Shown: positions 25,743 through 33,067 of the stretch, in pieces
Numbering within the stretch: position 1 is the first letter of the stretch
Layout: the number at the start of each line of letters is the position of its first letter
Assembly: GCA_963667665.2 (NCBI GenBank)
Contig: OY763927.2
Location: forward strand, 1,216,001 to 1,280,000
Length of the DNA: 64,000 bases
Origin: Nitrosopumilus sp.
GTDB lineage: Archaea > Thermoproteota > Nitrososphaeria > Nitrososphaerales > Nitrosopumilaceae
Direction: 5' to 3'
Notes under the pieces: generated by a model
Told to the model about the DNA's origin: nothing
The model's database searches: none
Seen by the model: only the letters and a program-made list of their open reading frames with translations
Program-made: the position numbers and the translations under genes

Positions 25743-26504
25743 TTGAAAATTGAGGAATATTTAGAAACACTTCCAGAAAATTTACTTAGTGGGGAAGACG
25801 TTCAGCTACCAGAAAAATCTTTTAGAGAAATTTTCAAATTTATAGATTTAGGGGAAAATGATATTTTTTATCATTTAGGTTGTGGTAATGAAAAAGGAAT
25901 AGAGATAGCAGTAAAAGAGTTCAAAGTAAAAAAAGCTGTAGGGATAGATAACAATCCTGAAAAAATTCAACATGGAAAAGAAATTCTTGAACAAAAAAAT
26001 ATTCAAGGACAATTAGTTTGTAAAAATATAGAAGAATCAGATATCTCAGATGCTACAGCAATTTTGTTCTGGTTCACAGATGATAATGTGATTAATCAAA
26101 TGTTAGGAAAATTTGAAAAACTAAAACCAGAAACAAAAATAATTACAATTTGGGGACCACTTCCAGATTGTATTCCAGATAAAGTAAATTTTCCATACAT
26201 TATCAACAAAATACCATTCAAAAAAGCACAAAGTATGAAAGAACAGGTATTAGCAATTTTTGGCGTAAAATGCATAGATTTTGTCACAGCATGGGAATTT
26301 GCAGAAAGATATACAAAATCTATTGGAACCCCTGAAATTAAAAATGATCGATTTTTGACAATCATACAGACATTAATGATTTGGATTAATGCAAAAAAAT
26401 TAGGAGTTGCTTGTGGTGAAGAGATTCCAGAAGCTATTCAAACTTATATCAATATCATGAAAATGCAATTTGACATTGATTTTGAATATCTTTTAAAAGA
26501 ATAA
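25743..26504 (+). CDS. Class I SAM-dependent methyltransferase-like protein
   Basis: FYHLGCG, AVGIDN, DISDATAI; extra C-terminal helical domain. Confidence 0.75.
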   Translation: MKIEEYLETLPENLLSGEDVQLPEKSFREIFKFIDLGENDIFYHLGCGNEKGIEIAVKEFKVKKAVGIDNNPEKIQHGKEILEQKNIQGQLVCKNIEESDISDATAILFWFTDDNVINQMLGKFEKLKPETKIITIWGPLPDCIPDKVNFPYIINKIPFKKAQSMKEQVLAIFGVKCIDFVTAWEFAERYTKSIGTPEIKNDRFLTIIQTLMIWINAKKLGVACGEEIPEAIQTYINIMKMQFDIDFEYLLKE

Positions 26505-26539
26505 TCGGTGTAAGCCTTTTATTTTGTTTTGATGTAATA

Positions 26540-26893
26540 TTGAATATGGAAAGTAGAATTAACATCAATGTTTCTACAGTAGATTATGATAAAACAAGTA
26601 AAGCATTAACTCATCAACTAGTTCTTTTAGAAGAAATGGTTCATAGTAAAGAAGATTTTGTTATGACTGATTCTGAATTTGCATTTGGTTGGCACTTTTT
26701 TGTATTAAGTGTGAATAAATCGCTTGTTGAAAAATTGATCGAAATTATGGGAGCAGATTTTAATAAACTAAAAGGAAAAGGAATTGAAAAAAAATTTCTT
26801 ACATGGTTAACAAAGAATGTAGAAACCAAGTCTCCACGATTCAAACTTGCCATCAAAGAAGAAATGGAATCTAGTAAATTCGGTATTTTCTAA
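26540..26893 (+). CDS. Hypothetical protein
   Basis: 117-aa ORF with host-like codon usage. Confidence 0.75.
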   Translation: MNMESRININVSTVDYDKTSKALTHQLVLLEEMVHSKEDFVMTDSEFAFGWHFFVLSVNKSLVEKLIEIMGADFNKLKGKGIEKKFLTWLTKNVETKSPRFKLAIKEEMESSKFGIF

Positions 26894-27024
26894 AAATTAG
26901 GTATGAAAAAGGATTGATTTTTACTCATTAAGGCAAATGATCCCAAAATCTTCAAATTATATCTAGAATTAATATTTAAAATTCTTTTAGAAAATTTTAT
27001 CATCTAGAATGATTATCAATTATT

Positions 27025-27372
27025 ATGGATATACAAAAAGCAGTTGAAAAAATTTTGAAGGTAAGCCCATCTGTCAGAGTAGTCAGTGTGGTTGATCTCA
27101 AAGGAAAAGTGGTATTTTCAGAACGTGCTAAGAAAGTGAAAATTTTGGTGTCAAAGAAACAGAGCTTGGCATCATTAAAGGCAGCAGCAAATGATTGGAA
27201 ACAACGAAAAAAACTAGTAAAAACGCTTGGTACATGCAAGTATGTTGTTGCAGAATATGACACGATAAAGAGGATAATTATGCCTGCAGGAAGAAATCAT
27301 ATTTTGTATGTAACTACTACTGCAGCTTTAGATCATAACAAAGTAGTTCGTAAAGTACGCTCTTTAAAGTAA
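27025..27372 (+). CDS. Roadblock/profilin-like thaumarchaeal protein (DUF6659-like), highly basic
   Basis: ILKVSPSVRVVSVVDLKGK...LGTCKYVVAEYDTIKRIIMP...HILYVTT pattern; followed by a T-tract. Confidence 0.7.
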   Translation: MDIQKAVEKILKVSPSVRVVSVVDLKGKVVFSERAKKVKILVSKKQSLASLKAAANDWKQRKKLVKTLGTCKYVVAEYDTIKRIIMPAGRNHILYVTTTAALDHNKVVRKVRSLK

Positions 27373-27487
27373 TCAAAACAATTCTATTTTTTTTTACAGT
27401 TTATTCAAGCTAGATCATTAGTTATTTTAAAAAAATTTTAGTGACAATACATTTTGTTGATTGTCTTTTTTAGATTAGTCACTGAAT

Positions 27488-27754
27488 TTATTTGAGTTTT
27501 CTTTTTCCAGTTCCTCTACCAGAACTAACCCACATACCTTTTGTATCAGGTCTCTTTTTTGGTTCAGATATATCACTGAAACTTATTTTACCAGTTCCTC
27601 TACCAGAAGTGATATATTTTATACCACTGTCTTTAGCTTTTGCTTTAGCTGCTTCTTGGATTTGTTTATATTCTTCACCAGTCCACTTTGTAGCATCACT
27701 GTCAACTTCAATAATTCTAGTGCCTCTTCCGGATCGTACTCTTATTTTGACCAT
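27488..27754 (-). CDS. Small basic protein with three SGRGT motifs, paralog A (88 aa)
   Basis: MVKIRVRSGRGTRIIEVD...ITSGRGTG...VSSGRGTGKRKLK; start set by alignment with the paralog at 31102. Confidence 0.9.
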   Translation of the reverse strand: MVKIRVRSGRGTRIIEVDSDATKWTGEEYKQIQEAAKAKAKDSGIKYITSGRGTGKISFSDISEPKKRPDTKGMWVSSGRGTGKRKLK

Positions 27755-28034
27755 ATTAATCACATATAATATAGAAATTCTCATTAATAAAATTTCGAAA
27801 AAGCGCAATTTTTGGAAAATTTGTCGTATTAAATGATTTAATTAAATTATGTATAAAAAATTCAAATTATTTTCTTAGTGAAAGGTTTTAGAATTTTTAT
27901 GATTCATAAAATTATGTAGACCCTCGAGGTGACTTGTCAAGTTAGTTCATGGCCCTTACAAGAATTAACAGTAAAACCTTATTCTATGCCTAAAATTTGA
28001 CCTTAAAACAAATTTCATATGTGATTATTCTCAA

Positions 28035-28142
28035 TTAAAATTTGGAAATTTTTTCATGTATATCATAAAGATCTAATTTCTGATCTAATACAGCAGAGGC
28101 CACAACAGTTACAATTTCAATTATGGGTTTAGTAAATGTCAT
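28035..28142 (-). pseudogene. tbp: Truncated TATA-box-binding protein (TBP) remnant
   Basis: MTFTKPIIEIVTVVASAVLDQKLDLYDIHEK matches the TBP N-terminus (TKPI...NVVASA..DQK.DL..I...FP); removing one A from an A6 run gives HEKFPN; no further TBP sequence follows. Confidence 0.7.
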
Positions 28143-28204
28143 CAAGAATCACACTAAAGAAACTATATTTAAAGAAATTTAAAATGGATTGTTAGATGTG
28201 TTTT

Positions 28205-28285
28205 ATGGTTACTTGTGATAAATGCTATCACGAATATCATGATCAATGCATGGGAAAAGTAGGAATGTTTGACTGTGATTGCTAG
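28205..28285 (+). CDS. 26-aa Cys/His-rich microprotein (possibly truncated by a nonsense codon)
   Basis: MVTCDKCYHEYHDQCMGKVGMFDCDC* followed in frame by CLKK*; alternative ATG at 28196; AT-rich TATA-like element about 30 nt upstream. Confidence 0.5.
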   Translation: MVTCDKCYHEYHDQCMGKVGMFDCDC

Positions 28286-28311
28286 TGTTTGAAAAAATAG
28301 TTTTTCTAGAA

Positions 28312-29112
28312 TTATTTTCTGATTTCTATTAAAATATTCTCATCAAACCATCTGATCTGCTCTAAATCATCAAAATTATTCTTGATGTTTTGTTGAAATA
28401 TTTCAAGAGATTCATCAAATGTTTCTTTATCATATAGAGCAAAAGTAGAATAGTGGTTGTTTTGAGCTTGGTGAACTAGTCTATCAAGACTAGAGGTTCT
28501 AGAATGTCCAAATACTCGGGTGGAATTAATATGTATATCTGCATTTTGTATATGGTGTTCTAATTCATCTAGTTCGTACAAACGATCTTCTTTCTCTGTA
28601 AATAATGGAAAGTGTTCTCCCCAAATACTTCTAGAATTTTGATTTCTTAGTCTAGTGTATATGAAAAGATGTCCATCATCTTTGAGTGTTCGTAATGATT
28701 CAGACAAAAACTTTGGAACATCAAAATGGTGAATTGTATTAAAGGTAACAATGCAATCCATTGAATTATTCTCTAGTGGTAGTCTGTTTGCATCACCCAG
28801 TCTTACACAAAAGTTTGTAGTGTTCTCCTCTACAAGATAACTCTCTAATGATTCTAACATTTTTTCATTATAATCCACACAGTGAATATAAAATGAAGCA
28901 TCAAAGCATTTCAAAAACTCTAGGGAATACCGTCCATCTCCACAACCAACATCTGCCATGTTGATTTTCTGTTTTTCTTTTAGTTTGTCTTTTATGTGTA
29001 GGATTGGTTTTGTATCCAATGTTCTTACACTTCGATATTTTGAGGCAATAGTTGAAAAGTGAGTATGCATATCTTGCGAGTTTAATTTAATTTCATTTTG
29101 TATTCTTGACAA
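28312..29112 (-). CDS. Class I SAM-dependent methyltransferase (Methyltransf_11-like)
   Basis: ADVGCGDG, HCVD, LGDANRLPL, NTIHHFD, RTLKDDG. Confidence 0.9.
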   Translation of the reverse strand: MSRIQNEIKLNSQDMHTHFSTIASKYRSVRTLDTKPILHIKDKLKEKQKINMADVGCGDGRYSLEFLKCFDASFYIHCVDYNEKMLESLESYLVEENTTNFCVRLGDANRLPLENNSMDCIVTFNTIHHFDVPKFLSESLRTLKDDGHLFIYTRLRNQNSRSIWGEHFPLFTEKEDRLYELDELEHHIQNADIHINSTRVFGHSRTSSLDRLVHQAQNNHYSTFALYDKETFDESLEIFQQNIKNNFDDLEQIRWFDENILIEIRK

Positions 29113-29271
29113 GGATTACGATGACTTTTTGCCCTATATGAAGCCACTAGTTTTTCAATCAATTTAACATGAAAAGAACCAAAAAAACTAGATTCTTGAC
29201 GATAAAATCAAAATTTGGATTCTATATGATAAAAATAAAGAGATAATATACAATGCAGCGTAATATCCAAT

Positions 29272-29457
29272 ATGGTACTTGTACTGATAGGAATTGCATT
29301 AGGAATTTTAATAGTAATAGCTCTAATTATCAAGGCGACTAAAACGTCTTCTCGTGATGTTGTGGGGATTGACATACATTGCAAAAAGTGTGGTGTTAAA
29401 ACACAGGGATTACCATGTCCAAAATGTGAAAAAAGAACCCAGTCATTTGGTGTTTAA
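29272..29457 (+). CDS. Small membrane-anchored Zn-ribbon protein
   Basis: N-terminal TM helix followed by CKKC-x8-CPKC. Confidence 0.75.
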   Translation: MVLVLIGIALGILIVIALIIKATKTSSRDVVGIDIHCKKCGVKTQGLPCPKCEKRTQSFGV

Positions 29458-29636
29458 TTTTAGTTCTAAATTGTAATAGATATTGCCAAAAAACTAGTAA
29501 GTACTACTTATTGTTAAATTGAAATTTAGGCCTTCAAAGGGAACTAGTGTTTTAGTTTAAGACTCTACAATTTAAAATAATTTTTAAAAATTTTCAGAAC
29601 AAAATGCAATGTTAGAGTCTTGAAATAATTTCGGAG

Positions 29637-29709
29637 GGCCCTCGAGGGGAATCGAACCCCTGTCCGGGGATCCACAATCCCCTATACTAGCCACTGTACT
29701 ACGAAGGCC
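29637..29709 (-). tRNA. tRNA-His(GTG) with genome-encoded G-1
   Basis: G-GCCTTCG...GGGGA-TTGTGGA-TCCCC...AGGGG-TTCGATT-CCCCT-CGAGGGC-C. Confidence 0.95.
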
Positions 29710-29803
29710 ACCAGAAAGAAAAATAGTTTATCCTGTAATAATCTTTGATTATGAACCAAAACTTAGACTGTAAATTTATTATTTACTAGTTAGAATTTAG
29801 AAT

Positions 29804-29884
29804 ATGCGATTATGGTGGATTGCAATGGCAATAGCAATTGGACTAACATGGATTGGAATGAACTATGGACTTCCATTCAAGTAG
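29804..29884 (+). CDS. 26-aa single-TM microprotein
   Basis: MRLWWIAMAIAIGLTWIGMNYGLPFK*; TTTATTAT element about 25-30 nt upstream. Confidence 0.55.
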   Translation: MRLWWIAMAIAIGLTWIGMNYGLPFK

Positions 29885-29981
29885 CCTCAAATGCAAGAAT
29901 GTTTTTCAATTTTACAACTAGGATTTTTTCATAAAGTGATAGCGATCGCTTTAAATTTGTTGTATTAGGGTATTTTTCGAC

Positions 29982-31004
29982 TTGAGAAAAGGATTCATTG
30001 CCAATAGATTACGTTCAGGAAGAAAATCAGTAGAGAATTCTATTGAAAGTGAAATGGAGACCATACAAGGGGAAAAATTTGTATGGATTAATTTACAAAA
30101 TCCAGATAGAAAAGATGTTGAAAAATTAGCTAAAAAATACAATTTCAATACACTAAACATTGAGGATTGTATGACCAAATTTGAACTTCCAAAACTAGAT
30201 AGTTATGATGACCATTTCTTTGTAATTTTGCATTTTCCACCACTTGCACAAAAAGTAGGAATATCAAAAAATAGTCAGTTATCAATATTTCTTGGAAAAG
30301 ATTTCCTAGTCACAGTACATCAAGGAGATCTAAAACCCCTAGTTGAATTAGCAGAAATATGTAAAACAGATTCAGATCTACAAAGAAAAGAGAGACTATT
30401 AGGAAAATCCTCAGGAGTATTACTTCATGAAATTATAGACGTACTAGTAGATGATCTTTTACATACTTCTAGAAAGATAATTGCAAATCTAGATGAAATG
30501 GAAGATAGGGTATTTGATGAAAAAAAACCAGTAGCAAGAAGTATTGCCCTACTTAGAAGGGAAATTAACAGACTAAGAAGAATAGCTAATCCATTAAAGA
30601 AATTTGTATTAGAAATTGCAAAAAATATTAAAAGATTTGCAGAAAGAGATGATGTAGAACTAACTTTATTTTTTGATGATATTATAGATCACATAGACAA
30701 AGTAATTGAAACACTAGAAGAATCACGAGAAACTATGGAAATTTACAAAGATACAGACTTTGTGTTAAGCACGGAAAAGACAAACAAAGTACTTAGTTTA
30801 CTAACTATTATTTTCATGCTAACAATACCATCAACATTAATTGGAACATTTTATGGAATGAATGTCAATTTACCAGGAGGAATTGGGGATGATTCAATGT
30901 TCTTAGGTCCATTTACAATTTTTATAATTATTATTCTTGCATCAGTAATTCCTGCGATCATGATGTTTGTATATTTCAAAAAACTGGGCTGGATATCTAG
31001 TTAA
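29982..31004 (+). CDS. corA: CorA family magnesium transporter
   Basis: FVWINL, PKLDSYDD, YGMNV signature. Confidence 0.95.
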   Translation: MRKGFIANRLRSGRKSVENSIESEMETIQGEKFVWINLQNPDRKDVEKLAKKYNFNTLNIEDCMTKFELPKLDSYDDHFFVILHFPPLAQKVGISKNSQLSIFLGKDFLVTVHQGDLKPLVELAEICKTDSDLQRKERLLGKSSGVLLHEIIDVLVDDLLHTSRKIIANLDEMEDRVFDEKKPVARSIALLRREINRLRRIANPLKKFVLEIAKNIKRFAERDDVELTLFFDDIIDHIDKVIETLEESRETMEIYKDTDFVLSTEKTNKVLSLLTIIFMLTIPSTLIGTFYGMNVNLPGGIGDDSMFLGPFTIFIIIILASVIPAIMMFVYFKKLGWISS

Positions 31005-31101
31005 AATAAGAGATTTTAGAGTTTTTTACAAATTTCACTAAAATTAGGGTAAATTCCAACAAAGCACCCTAGATAAATACAAGATAATTTTACCTTATTT
31101 T

Positions 31102-31356
31102 ATGGTTAAAATTAGAGTACGAAGCGGAAGAGGCACAAGAATTATTGAAGTTGATAGCGATGCTACAAAGTGGACTGGTGAACAATTTAAAGAAATCCAA
31201 GCAGCCAGAAAAGCAGCAACTGGAAATAGAATGGTCTCTTCTGGTAGAGGAACCGGTAGAAGAAAATTGAGTGATATACCTGAACCAAAAAAGAGACCTG
31301 AATACAAAGGTACAATAACTTCAGGTAGAGGAACCGGTAAAAGAAAAGCGAAGTAA
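31102..31356 (+). CDS. Small basic protein with three SGRGT motifs, paralog B (84 aa)
   Basis: First 27 aa identical to paralog A; three SGRGT motifs; downstream T-tracts. Confidence 0.9.
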   Translation: MVKIRVRSGRGTRIIEVDSDATKWTGEQFKEIQAARKAATGNRMVSSGRGTGRRKLSDIPEPKKRPEYKGTITSGRGTGKRKAK

Positions 31357-31430
31357 TAAGAATTCGTAAAAAACCTAATTTTTCATTTTTAATATTTTTT
31401 ATTTTATATTATTAACTAGATTTGATTTTT

Positions 31431-32096
31431 CTATATTTTGATATCAGGATTTCCAGCTTTAAGCTTTTCCCAATCTGCAAGAAAGTTTTCTAAACCAATT
31501 TTTGTCAATGGATGTTGCATCATCTTGTCTAAAACTGCAGGAGGTAATGTTACTACATCTGCTCCAATTTTTGCAGCATCAATTACATGTATTGGATGAC
31601 GGATACTTGCAACAAGTATCTCAGTTTCAAAATCATAATTGTCAAATATTTTTCTGATATCTTTAATTAGATGCATTCCATCTTGTCCAATATCATCTAG
31701 TCTTCCAATAAATGGACTAACATATTTTGCACCAGATTTTGCAGCAAGCAAAGCCTGATTTGGTGAAAATATCAACGTAACATTAACAGGGATTCCTTCT
31801 GATGAAAGGGATTTACATGCTTTCAAACCATCAGGAGTCATAGGAACTTTAACTACAACATTATCTCCATATTCACGAAGACGTTTGCCTTCTTCCATCA
31901 TTCCAGAGTATTCTGTACTTACAACTTCTAGACTTACATCACCTTTGATAATTTTTGTTATCTCTTCCATTGCATCTTTAGGATTACCTTTTTCTTTAGA
32001 CAATAGAGAAGGGTTTGTTGTGATTCCATCTAGTAATCCCATATCATTAAATTTTCTAATAGATTCTAGATTAGCAGTGTCAAGAAAAATCTTCAT
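31431..32096 (-). CDS. tal: Transaldolase (TalC/FSA family)
   Basis: [30 protein letters not shown]. Confidence 0.95.
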
Positions 32097-33067
32097 AATT
32101 TTTTGTTCCTAATTTCTTTGACTTGTTTTACCATATTAAAAGATGTTATTCCATGCTTTTCTAAGAGTAAAGGAACTTCGTTATCTCTAGCAGATTCACC
32201 AAACATATCTTGAGCACCAATTCTCTTTATTGGTACAGGATATGTTTCAGAAACAGATTCTGTAACAGCAGAACCCATTCCACCAAAAATATTGTGTTCC
32301 TCAGTAGTAACTATACAACCAGTTTCTCTTGCTGCTTTTTCTAAAATTTTATTGTCAATTGGTTTTATTGAAAACATATCCAAAACTCTACAGGAAATAC
32401 CTTCTTGCTTTAATGTATCAGCTGCATCTAAAGCCATGCTAACAGTAATTCCACATGCTGCAATAGTACAATCAGAACCATCTCTTAGAGTAATACCTTT
32501 TCCAATTTGAAAATCTTGAGATTCTGAATGAATCAAAGGAGTTTTGGATCTTGCCATTCTCATATAAAATGGACCATATTCATTTGCCATTAAGTGAGTT
32601 AATTTGGAAACTGAAATAGTATCAGCTGGAATAAAAACTCGGAAATTAGGAATAACTCTCATTATTGCAATGTCCTCAAGTTGTTGATGTGAACCTCCAT
32701 CAGGTCCAACAGACAAACCTCCATGAGAGACAACTAATTTCACATTAAGACCATTTTTGCCTTGGGGTGAAGGATAAGCAATATTATTTCGAATTTGATC
32801 AACTGCTCTTCCTGGCAAAAATATTGCATAAGTACTAGCAAAAGAAATTTTTCCAGATGCTGCCAATCCAGCAGAAACTGTAACAAGATTTGCTTCAGCA
32901 ATCCCAACATTGAAAAATCTATCAGGAAATTCTTTTCCAAAACCAGAAGTCTTTAGTGAATCAGTTGTATCTGCACCTAAAACTACAACATTTGGATTAT
33001 CTTTTCCAACTTGTATCAAAGATTTGGAATATTCTGAACGCATATCAGTCATAATTTTTTCAATCAA
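32093..33067 (-). CDS. Transketolase C-terminal subunit
   Basis: [27 protein letters not shown]. Confidence 0.95.

Follow-up and report, generated by a model that had tools for sequence, protein, structure and literature searches.

Triple RGT-hairpin proteins, a lineage-restricted family of small basic proteins in Nitrosopumilaceae with a putative nucleic-acid-binding role

What are the two small basic proteins that flank a transfer RNA (tRNA) gene in a Nitrosopumilus genome? The window analysed here is a stretch of 64,000 nucleotides (nt) from Nitrosopumilus sp. (assembly GCA_963667665.2, contig OY763927.2, positions 1,216,001 to 1,280,000). It carries two divergently oriented open reading frames (ORFs), called paralog A and paralog B, with tRNA-His(GTG) between them (Table 1). 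A preliminary description, made from the letters alone, had placed both ORFs and their strands, and the ORF list and direct translations agree with it. The same description suggested a nucleic-acid-binding protein with SGRG turns, a histone-tail-like module, a modified-peptide precursor, or a new system. The two ORFs are members of a family of proteins of about 85 amino acids (aa), newly named here the triple RGT-hairpin family. Its genes are genuine and subject to purifying selection, and a cultured relative translates them; they look monocistronic, are multi-copy and are restricted to one lineage. With somewhat less than even confidence, we propose that the family is a lineage-specific, abundant, non-enzymatic nucleic-acid-binding protein.

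The two window proteins are 69% identical (BLASTP, E = 2e-39), and their genes are 80% identical in DNA. Translation bore out the features first noticed by eye: each protein has three SGRGT motifs and a common SDI.EPKKRP stretch, is rich in Lys and Arg (22 of 88 residues in paralog B, 23 of 84 in paralog A) and contains no Cys. Residues 1-27 are identical between the paralogs, and codon comparison confirmed that 6 of these 27 codons differ, including TCC versus AGC at Ser8. By the Nei-Gojobori method, the proportion of synonymous differences (pS) between A and B is 0.27 over codons 1-27 and 0.30 over the later codons. The ratio of nonsynonymous to synonymous divergence (dN/dS) rises from 0.10 over codons 1-27 to 0.74 over the later ones. 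Since synonymous divergence is equal in both parts, the N-terminal identity reflects the strong purifying selection claimed in the preliminary description and not recent gene conversion.

The family is found well beyond these two genes. A word-indexed search returned 482 candidates, 479 of which match at E <= 0.01, and with so many database proteins the family cannot be a chance resemblance. All source names among the 120 matches listed are "hypothetical protein", from Nitrosopumilus or Nitrososphaerota. A HMMER profile run against 1.84 billion representatives clustered at 50% identity retrieved 123 of them at E <= 0.001, nearly all of 55-117 aa. Named records over 67 loci belong to Nitrosopumilus, Nitrosarchaeum, Nitrosopumilaceae, Marine Group I and Thaumarchaeota. 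Exact look-ups extend the list to Nitrosarchaeum koreense, Nitrosotenuis cloacae and aquarius, Nitrosopelagicus brevis, N. maritimus, N. adriaticus, N. cobalaminigenes and N. ureiphilus; these records are all annotated as hypothetical. The small protein looks soluble, and it occurs in strains available in culture (N. maritimus, Nitrosarchaeum koreense, Nitrosotenuis and Nitrosopelagicus brevis).

When whole genomes of the same taxonomic family were searched, 119 of 151, from 26 of 27 genera, had a match. By genus, the matches are 0 of 10 genomes in g22, 1 of 9 in g27 and 2 of 9 in g34. The tally includes two unpublished genomes, G117 and G133, as matches; without both it is 117 of 149, with 0 of 8 in g27. 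A 64-row profile searched across the class matched 95 of 114 Nitrosopumilaceae genomes, G117 counting here among the non-matches, and was found in none (0/86) of the genomes searched from 13 other families. The distribution and copy number, for which the preliminary description had proposed a profile search, are thus Nitrosopumilaceae only among the genomes searched, with one to five matches per genome. Viral contigs were also searched and yielded no relative of the family. Throughout, the gene is short and stands alone, and it occupies at least three different conserved positions, or slots. The long matches fetched as possible fusions (P0237, P0233, P0239 and some fragments, with P0201 of 7492 aa and P0231 of 1870 aa left out) turned out to be a repeat protein with no relation to the family, ORFs that are frameshifted or chimeric, or ORFs with mis-called starts; fused forms may yet exist among longer proteins.

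Conservation across the family was counted over 64 aligned rows from diverse members. What the family keeps throughout is a threefold [RK]-G-T together with W-x-G-x-x-[FY], and not SGRG. In motif 1, the basic residue is Arg in 45 rows and Lys in 19, and both Gly and Thr are kept in all 64. Motif 2 has Arg in 42 rows and Lys in 21, followed by Gly in 64 and Thr in 59, and motif 3 has Arg in 52 and Lys in 12, Gly in 64 and Thr in 63. The Trp, Gly and Phe/Tyr that precede the helix are kept in 57, 62 and 62 rows, respectively, and a K-G ahead of the last hairpin is kept as well. The isoelectric point (pI) exceeds 9 in 83 of 88 representatives at 50% identity.

These counts bear directly on the idea that SGRG acts like a histone tail, being methylated at Arg or phosphorylated at Ser. 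Both window copies do carry SGRG three times. However, the Ser of motif 1 is present in 23 of the 64 rows and its first Gly in 24, and three SGRGT motifs occur together in 3 rows only. The "SG" of SGRGT is confined to the Nitrosopumilus/Nitrosarchaeum branch. Furthermore, the motifs lie in predicted structured hairpins, at their turns, and not in a tail. No histone-fold match was seen either, as no Pfam histone family is among the matches of the window proteins or the 64 members, and the window genome's own histone is a separate gene. The analogy therefore fails in this form, and we consider it very improbable.

AlphaFold2 gave a poor model with 13 sequences (predicted local distance difference test, pLDDT, 60.7). 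With 64 sequences, pLDDT rose to 76.9, at a predicted template modelling score (pTM) of 0.44. In the latter model, strands span residues 3-8/13-18, 48-50/55-57 and 75-78/83-86, and a helix of 17 residues (27-43) follows W-x-G-x-x-[FY]. Three beta-hairpins are predicted, with RGT at each turn, and the motif turns have pLDDT values of 70-85. The suggestion that the SGRG motif sits at a beta-hairpin turn is thus matched by the model, which sets each RGT at a hairpin tip. The alternation of hydrophobic and basic residues along the strands is visible in the sequence itself. The mutual packing of the hairpins is unsettled because pTM is low, and the protein may need a partner, nucleic acid or self-association in order to fold. 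Foldseek found no match in the PDB at E <= 0.001, and the best VIA-align hit among 48,161 chains had Z 2.1; since the query model had a pTM of 0.44, a fold could be missed. These blanks mean that nothing matched and are not evidence of a new fold.

Sequence searches agree that the family has no name, as the preliminary description had stated. Pfam gave nothing above threshold for the two window proteins or the 64 members, and NCBIfam gave no match. Neither a single protein nor the 64-row profile had a significant sequence match in the PDB, where the best profile match was the ribosomal protein uL29 (E = 0.25). The ESM Atlas returned only nameless clusters of Nitrososphaerota (0.93-0.94), and among named entries none scored high enough to serve as a lead (best 0.80). 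The ubiquitin-like UBX-L family (OTU1_UBXL, PF21403) weakly matches the N-terminal hairpin, at residues 3-22, with a sub-threshold E value of 0.12; 8 of the 64 members show this match, the best at 0.022. It differs from a true match in scoring 13.4 bits against a curated cut-off of 22.7, in covering one hairpin only, and in the absence of a beta-grasp from the fold searches. The order hairpin-helix-hairpin over the first 58 residues presumably resembles that of the swapped-hairpin DNA-binding domain of AbrB. An AbrB/SpoVT/MazE (PF04014) reading was rejected, as hhalign gave a probability of 0.6% against a 53-aa AbrB-like protein of the same genome. PF04014 had no match at E <= 1 among the 64 members, and the family differs from AbrB in a helix about twice as long and in a third hairpin.

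Known archaeal chromatin proteins gave a similar picture. Alba (PF01918), Cren7 (PF11520) and Sul7d had no Pfam match among the 64 members at E <= 1 or the window proteins at E <= 10, and Cren7 was not found in the window's genome. The family is like Alba in being about 90 aa long, basic and multi-copy (Alba has five matches in the window's genome), and in having spectral counts of the same order in N. maritimus. However, Alba is an unrelated sequence family, and its counts are about two to three times those of the N. maritimus slot-A protein A9A414. Separately, several Alba-domain matches end long open frames of 244 to 772 aa: L133 (G171:C1:583258-583446), with a long Pro/Glu/Thr repeat upstream, and, in the window's genome, G000:C1:1289749-1289937, 935024-935212 and C2:2636-2824. 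These may be Alba with low-complexity N-terminal extensions or open non-coding frames. The family also resembles Cren7, Sul7d and MC1, which we take to be small (60-100 aa), basic, beta-rich, stand-alone, often multi-copy, lineage-restricted and abundant in the proteome. In contrast to these, the family has no sequence match to them, and its DNA binding is putative. The fold searches brought up none of them either, but an SH3-like or Alba fold could have been missed at this pTM. Ribosomal families had no Pfam or NCBIfam match, and absence from the PDB says little about ribosome association. We know of no counterpart to the threefold [RK]-G-T hairpin architecture. The family is thus nameless and without a detectable relative, and it most likely belongs to a kind that is already known, the lineage-specific small basic architectural protein.

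Do the two neighbouring genes form a system, as had been suggested? Clustering of neighbouring genes revealed at least three conserved slots and a deep fourth branch. Slot A, which holds the 31102 copy of the window, lies between CorA and transaldolase/transketolase. Slot B, which holds the 27488 copy, is convergent with a gene for a 115-aa protein that has no known family. Copies of other genera occupy a gatD-gatE slot in 10 of 20 loci fetched. The fourth branch, type C, is deep and divergent and occurs in several genera. The window genome's own type C member lies outside the window, at G000:C1:363938-364162 (-), equivalent to L003:1489-1761 (-). It is 90 aa long, 33% identical to the 88-aa copy, and has the motifs EKGT, AKGT and RRGT. 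In three genomes, the neighbourhood of type C includes EF-1alpha, ribosomal protein S10, a small RpoP-like ORF and two zinc-finger genes. In L114, a single in-frame TAG interrupts the type C copy (G020:C1:1362458-1362679), which may be a pseudogene.

A tree of 103 distinct rows was compared with the slots. It leaves out the rows of L020, L074, L105, L108, L114, L118, L120 and L122, which are two-RGT members, fragments and the TAG-interrupted copy. Fifty-two rows lie by CorA and/or transaldolase, 32 by the 115-aa gene, 11 by gatE and 8 by none of these. Slot labels require 17 changes on the tree, compared with a mean of 53.6 when shuffled, and none of 200 shuffles was as low. Each window copy groups with the other copies of its slot, and the two are separated by a branch with 96% support in the Shimodaira-Hasegawa-like approximate likelihood ratio test (SH-aLRT). 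A tree without eight of the slot-B rows placed the B clade in a nested position next to the A group of the window, and with 88 columns the deeper order is unsettled. Alignment of the upstream regions showed that a block upstream of paralog B is common to the slot-B genes of L123 and L090, and one upstream of paralog A to the slot-A genes of L123 and L088.

The order paralog B (-), tRNA-His, CorA (+), paralog A (+) recurs in L015/L123 (one contig), in L039 (a Nitrosarchaeum metagenome-assembled genome) and in L020, where 88-170 nt separate the tRNA-His gene from the slot-B gene downstream of it. In most genomes, slots A and B are far apart; in N. maritimus, the GenBank protein accessions of the two copies differ by 107. 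The twins are thus old paralogs, each in its own conserved slot, and the slots happen to lie side by side in this genome and in at least three others. Because the slots are separate and mostly far apart, the twins are neighbours by synteny and not a two-gene system. A co-oriented tRNA gene 36-170 nt upstream of the slot-B gene was seen in 7 of 34 loci scanned, being tRNA-His in L015 and L039 and tRNA-Val in L023, L075, L077, L079 and L090. This adjacency could arise from co-transcription or from a rearrangement-prone junction.

The slots also bear on the suggestion that the proteins are multi-core precursors of a ribosomally synthesised and post-translationally modified peptide (RiPP). A short motif repeated three times in a small ORF fits such a precursor. 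However, none of the slots has a conserved gene for a maturase, a protease or a transporter; the slot neighbours are CorA and transaldolase, the 115-aa protein, gatD-gatE and zinc-finger genes, and none is common between slots. The strongest constraint falls on the N-terminal hairpin and the helix, as in a folded domain, and Cys is absent from the window proteins. In addition, orthologs are present at steady levels in 27-28 of 28 whole-cell proteomes in the supplement of PMC12974425. We regard a RiPP precursor as extremely improbable.

Expression can be followed in the cultured relative N. maritimus. A slot-A relative is letter-identical to ABX12198.1 (UniProt A9A414), and Nmar_0195 (ABX12091.1, A9A1X0) falls into the same 90% cluster as a slot-B relative. 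Supplementary file 5 of PMC12974425 gives spectral counts for 28 N. maritimus cultures. In this file, A9A414 has 13-28 counts and is present in all 28 samples, and A9A1X0 has 0-15 counts, non-zero in 27 of 28. The translation of the family that the preliminary description expected is thus seen in published proteomes. In the same file, the main Alba, Nmar_0255, has 37-60 counts and a second Alba 0-7, ribosomal protein S6e has 32-55, and the histone Nmar_1432 has 0 in 28 of 28. By these counts, the family orthologs rank below the main Alba and above the histone. Tryptic peptides of a Lys/Arg-rich protein are short, and the counts probably understate its abundance. Hocher et al. 2022 (PMC7613761) give the histone as less than 0.06% of the N. 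maritimus proteome.

The gene adjoining Nmar_0195, Nmar_0196, is presumed to be the counterpart of the window's 115-aa protein; it has 10-21 counts and is present in all 28 samples of that file. Supplementary file 4 of PMC12974425 tabulates Nmar_0195 and Nmar_0196 as "general metal response", with protein values from two further studies, and gives a log2 fold change (log2FC) of -3.23 for each transcript under copper limitation (Qin 2018, via PMC12974425). A full-text literature search for Nmar_0195, Nmar_0302, A9A1X0 and A9A414 found no paper naming them in the library searched, and the supplements of Qin et al. 2020 (PMC7490402) do not contain these identifiers.

An abundant structural binder, rather than an enzyme or a regulator, is suggested by several features together: the proteins are small and basic and belong to no catalytic family, the genes are stand-alone and multi-copy with their own A+T-rich upstream blocks, and three [RK]GT tips are exposed in the model. 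The basic composition of the window proteins makes nucleic acid a plausible target. The three Arg/Lys and Thr pairs at the hairpin tips, together with the basic faces of the amphipathic strands, would contact the phosphate backbone. The hairpin geometry comes from the model only, and the binding function is wholly our proposal. If the family does bind nucleic acid, DNA and chromatin, with the family as a lineage-specific nucleoid-associated protein (NAP), stand somewhat ahead of RNA and the ribosome. This is because whole genera are without the family, paralogs in one genome are about 30% identical, and the histone is silent in the relative's proteome. Indeed, a dispensable chromatin protein fits the near-absence from g22 (0/10) and g27 (1/9) better than a core ribosomal protein does.

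A ribosome- or RNA-associated role nevertheless has its own support. In this case the family would be a lineage-specific accessory protein or RNA chaperone, with its hairpins inserted into ribosomal RNA or tRNA. In the supplement of PMC12974425, the spectral counts per length are within about 1.5-fold of those of S6e and follow a similar pattern, with a peak at 27 °C under iron-replete conditions and lower values when iron is limited. Several slots place copies beside translation genes, gatD-gatE in other genera and EF-1alpha/S10 in the case of the third paralog. In the 7 of 34 slot-B loci mentioned above, tRNA-His or tRNA-Val precedes the family gene in the same orientation, at a distance of less than 170 nt. 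However, these neighbours are convergent or separately transcribed, and their adjacency may be synteny alone. Strongly diverged paralogs in one genome and genera without the family would be unusual for ribosomal components, and the uL29 match is not significant. This role is unlikely in our view.

Another explanation dispenses with nucleic acid. The proteins could be hydrophilic adaptors or signalling substrates whose [RK]-G-T tips are Thr-phosphorylation (or Arg-methylation) sites or docking loops, or else stress-protective hydrophilins. An invariant Thr after Arg/Lys at three turns that are exposed in the model would suit such a role, as do the few acidic family members, the drop of the Nmar_0195 transcript under copper limitation listed in the supplement of PMC12974425, and the two S-adenosylmethionine (SAM) methyltransferase genes nearby in the window. 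However, no kinase, FHA or methyltransferase gene is conserved beside any slot, the methyltransferase gene at 28312-29112 is missing from the corresponding interval of L123, and the hydrophobic residue at T+3 is accounted for by the second strand of the hairpin. We judge a role of this kind to be quite unlikely.

Several points weigh against nucleic-acid binding itself. The neighbouring genes are convergent or unrelated and give no functional hint. Acidic proteins (pI < 7) make up 4 of the 88 representatives, which does not fit binding driven by charge alone. The model is not compact, and at a pTM of 0.44 the fold is unsettled. The searches described here found no sequence or fold similarity to known DNA- or RNA-binding proteins. 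Spectral counts are not absolute abundances. Finally, supplementary file 2 of Hocher et al. 2022 (PMC7613761) classes both N. maritimus proteins as "other" and not among the NAPs or candidates.

The remaining features of the locus are mostly context (Table 1). An Rfam search over 26000-33000 found tRNA only and no other RNA. The class-I methyltransferase gene and the 61-aa ORF that lie between paralog B and tRNA-His are both missing from the corresponding interval of L123, and, compared with the nearest relatives that carry both twins, the segment (28312..29457) looks inserted next to the tRNA gene. A further methyltransferase-like protein of 253 aa is encoded at 25743-26504 (+), with sub-threshold Pfam matches only, including a weak one to the histone methyltransferase DOT1 (E = 0.001); its gene is syntenic with a region in L098, L100 and L123. 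Long antisense ORFs at 27492-27836 (+) and 31095-31307 (-) run opposite the two family genes and are seen again in relatives. Most likely these are not genes but shadow frames of the Gly-, Arg- and Thr-rich coding strand.

Table 1. Features around the two triple RGT-hairpin genes, with positions counted in the window.
Feature	Position	Strand	Family match	Description
115-aa protein	27025..27372	+	no known family	syntenic anchor of slot B; convergent with paralog B; anchor, candidate partner at most
Paralog B	27488..27754	-	triple RGT-hairpin	88 aa plus stop, pI 10.3; slot-B copy, convergent with the 115-aa gene
Putative own promoter of paralog B	27755..27801	-		conserved A+T-rich stretch immediately upstream; promoter inferred
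Class-I SAM methyltransferase	28312-29112	-		266 aa; between paralog B and tRNA-His; outside the family
61-aa ORF	29272-29457	+		membrane helix and zinc ribbon; between paralog B and tRNA-His; outside the family
tRNA-His(GTG)	29636..29708	-		landmark between the slots, same orientation as paralog B; context only
CorA Mg2+ transporter	29982..31004	+	PF01544, E = 2.8e-67	upstream anchor of slot A; context only
Putative own promoter of paralog A	31067..31101	+		conserved A+T-rich stretch immediately upstream; promoter inferred
Paralog A	31102..31356	+	triple RGT-hairpin	84 aa plus stop, pI 11.4; slot-A copy, in the CorA/transaldolase interval
Transaldolase	31431..32096	-	PF00923, E = 2.5e-66	downstream anchor of slot A; context only

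Nitrosopumilaceae rank with the most numerous archaea of the ocean and drive marine nitrification. A protein that is found across this family of archaea, in several copies and well expressed, carries no annotation beyond "hypothetical"; Pfam and NCBIfam do not include it, and no structural relative could be detected. At its boldest, our proposal would make the triple RGT-hairpin proteins the main chromatin (or chromatin-plus-RNA) architects of marine ammonia-oxidising archaea. They would then replace the histone with a new DNA-binding fold of three phosphate-gripping fingers, and the Thr at the tips would serve as a phosphorylation switch. Taken as a whole, this extended form is a speculation that we think unlikely to hold. 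If the family does organise DNA or RNA, it would add a new kind to the diverse architectural proteins of archaea, and it would explain how these cells cope with a histone that is undetected in the proteome data examined here.

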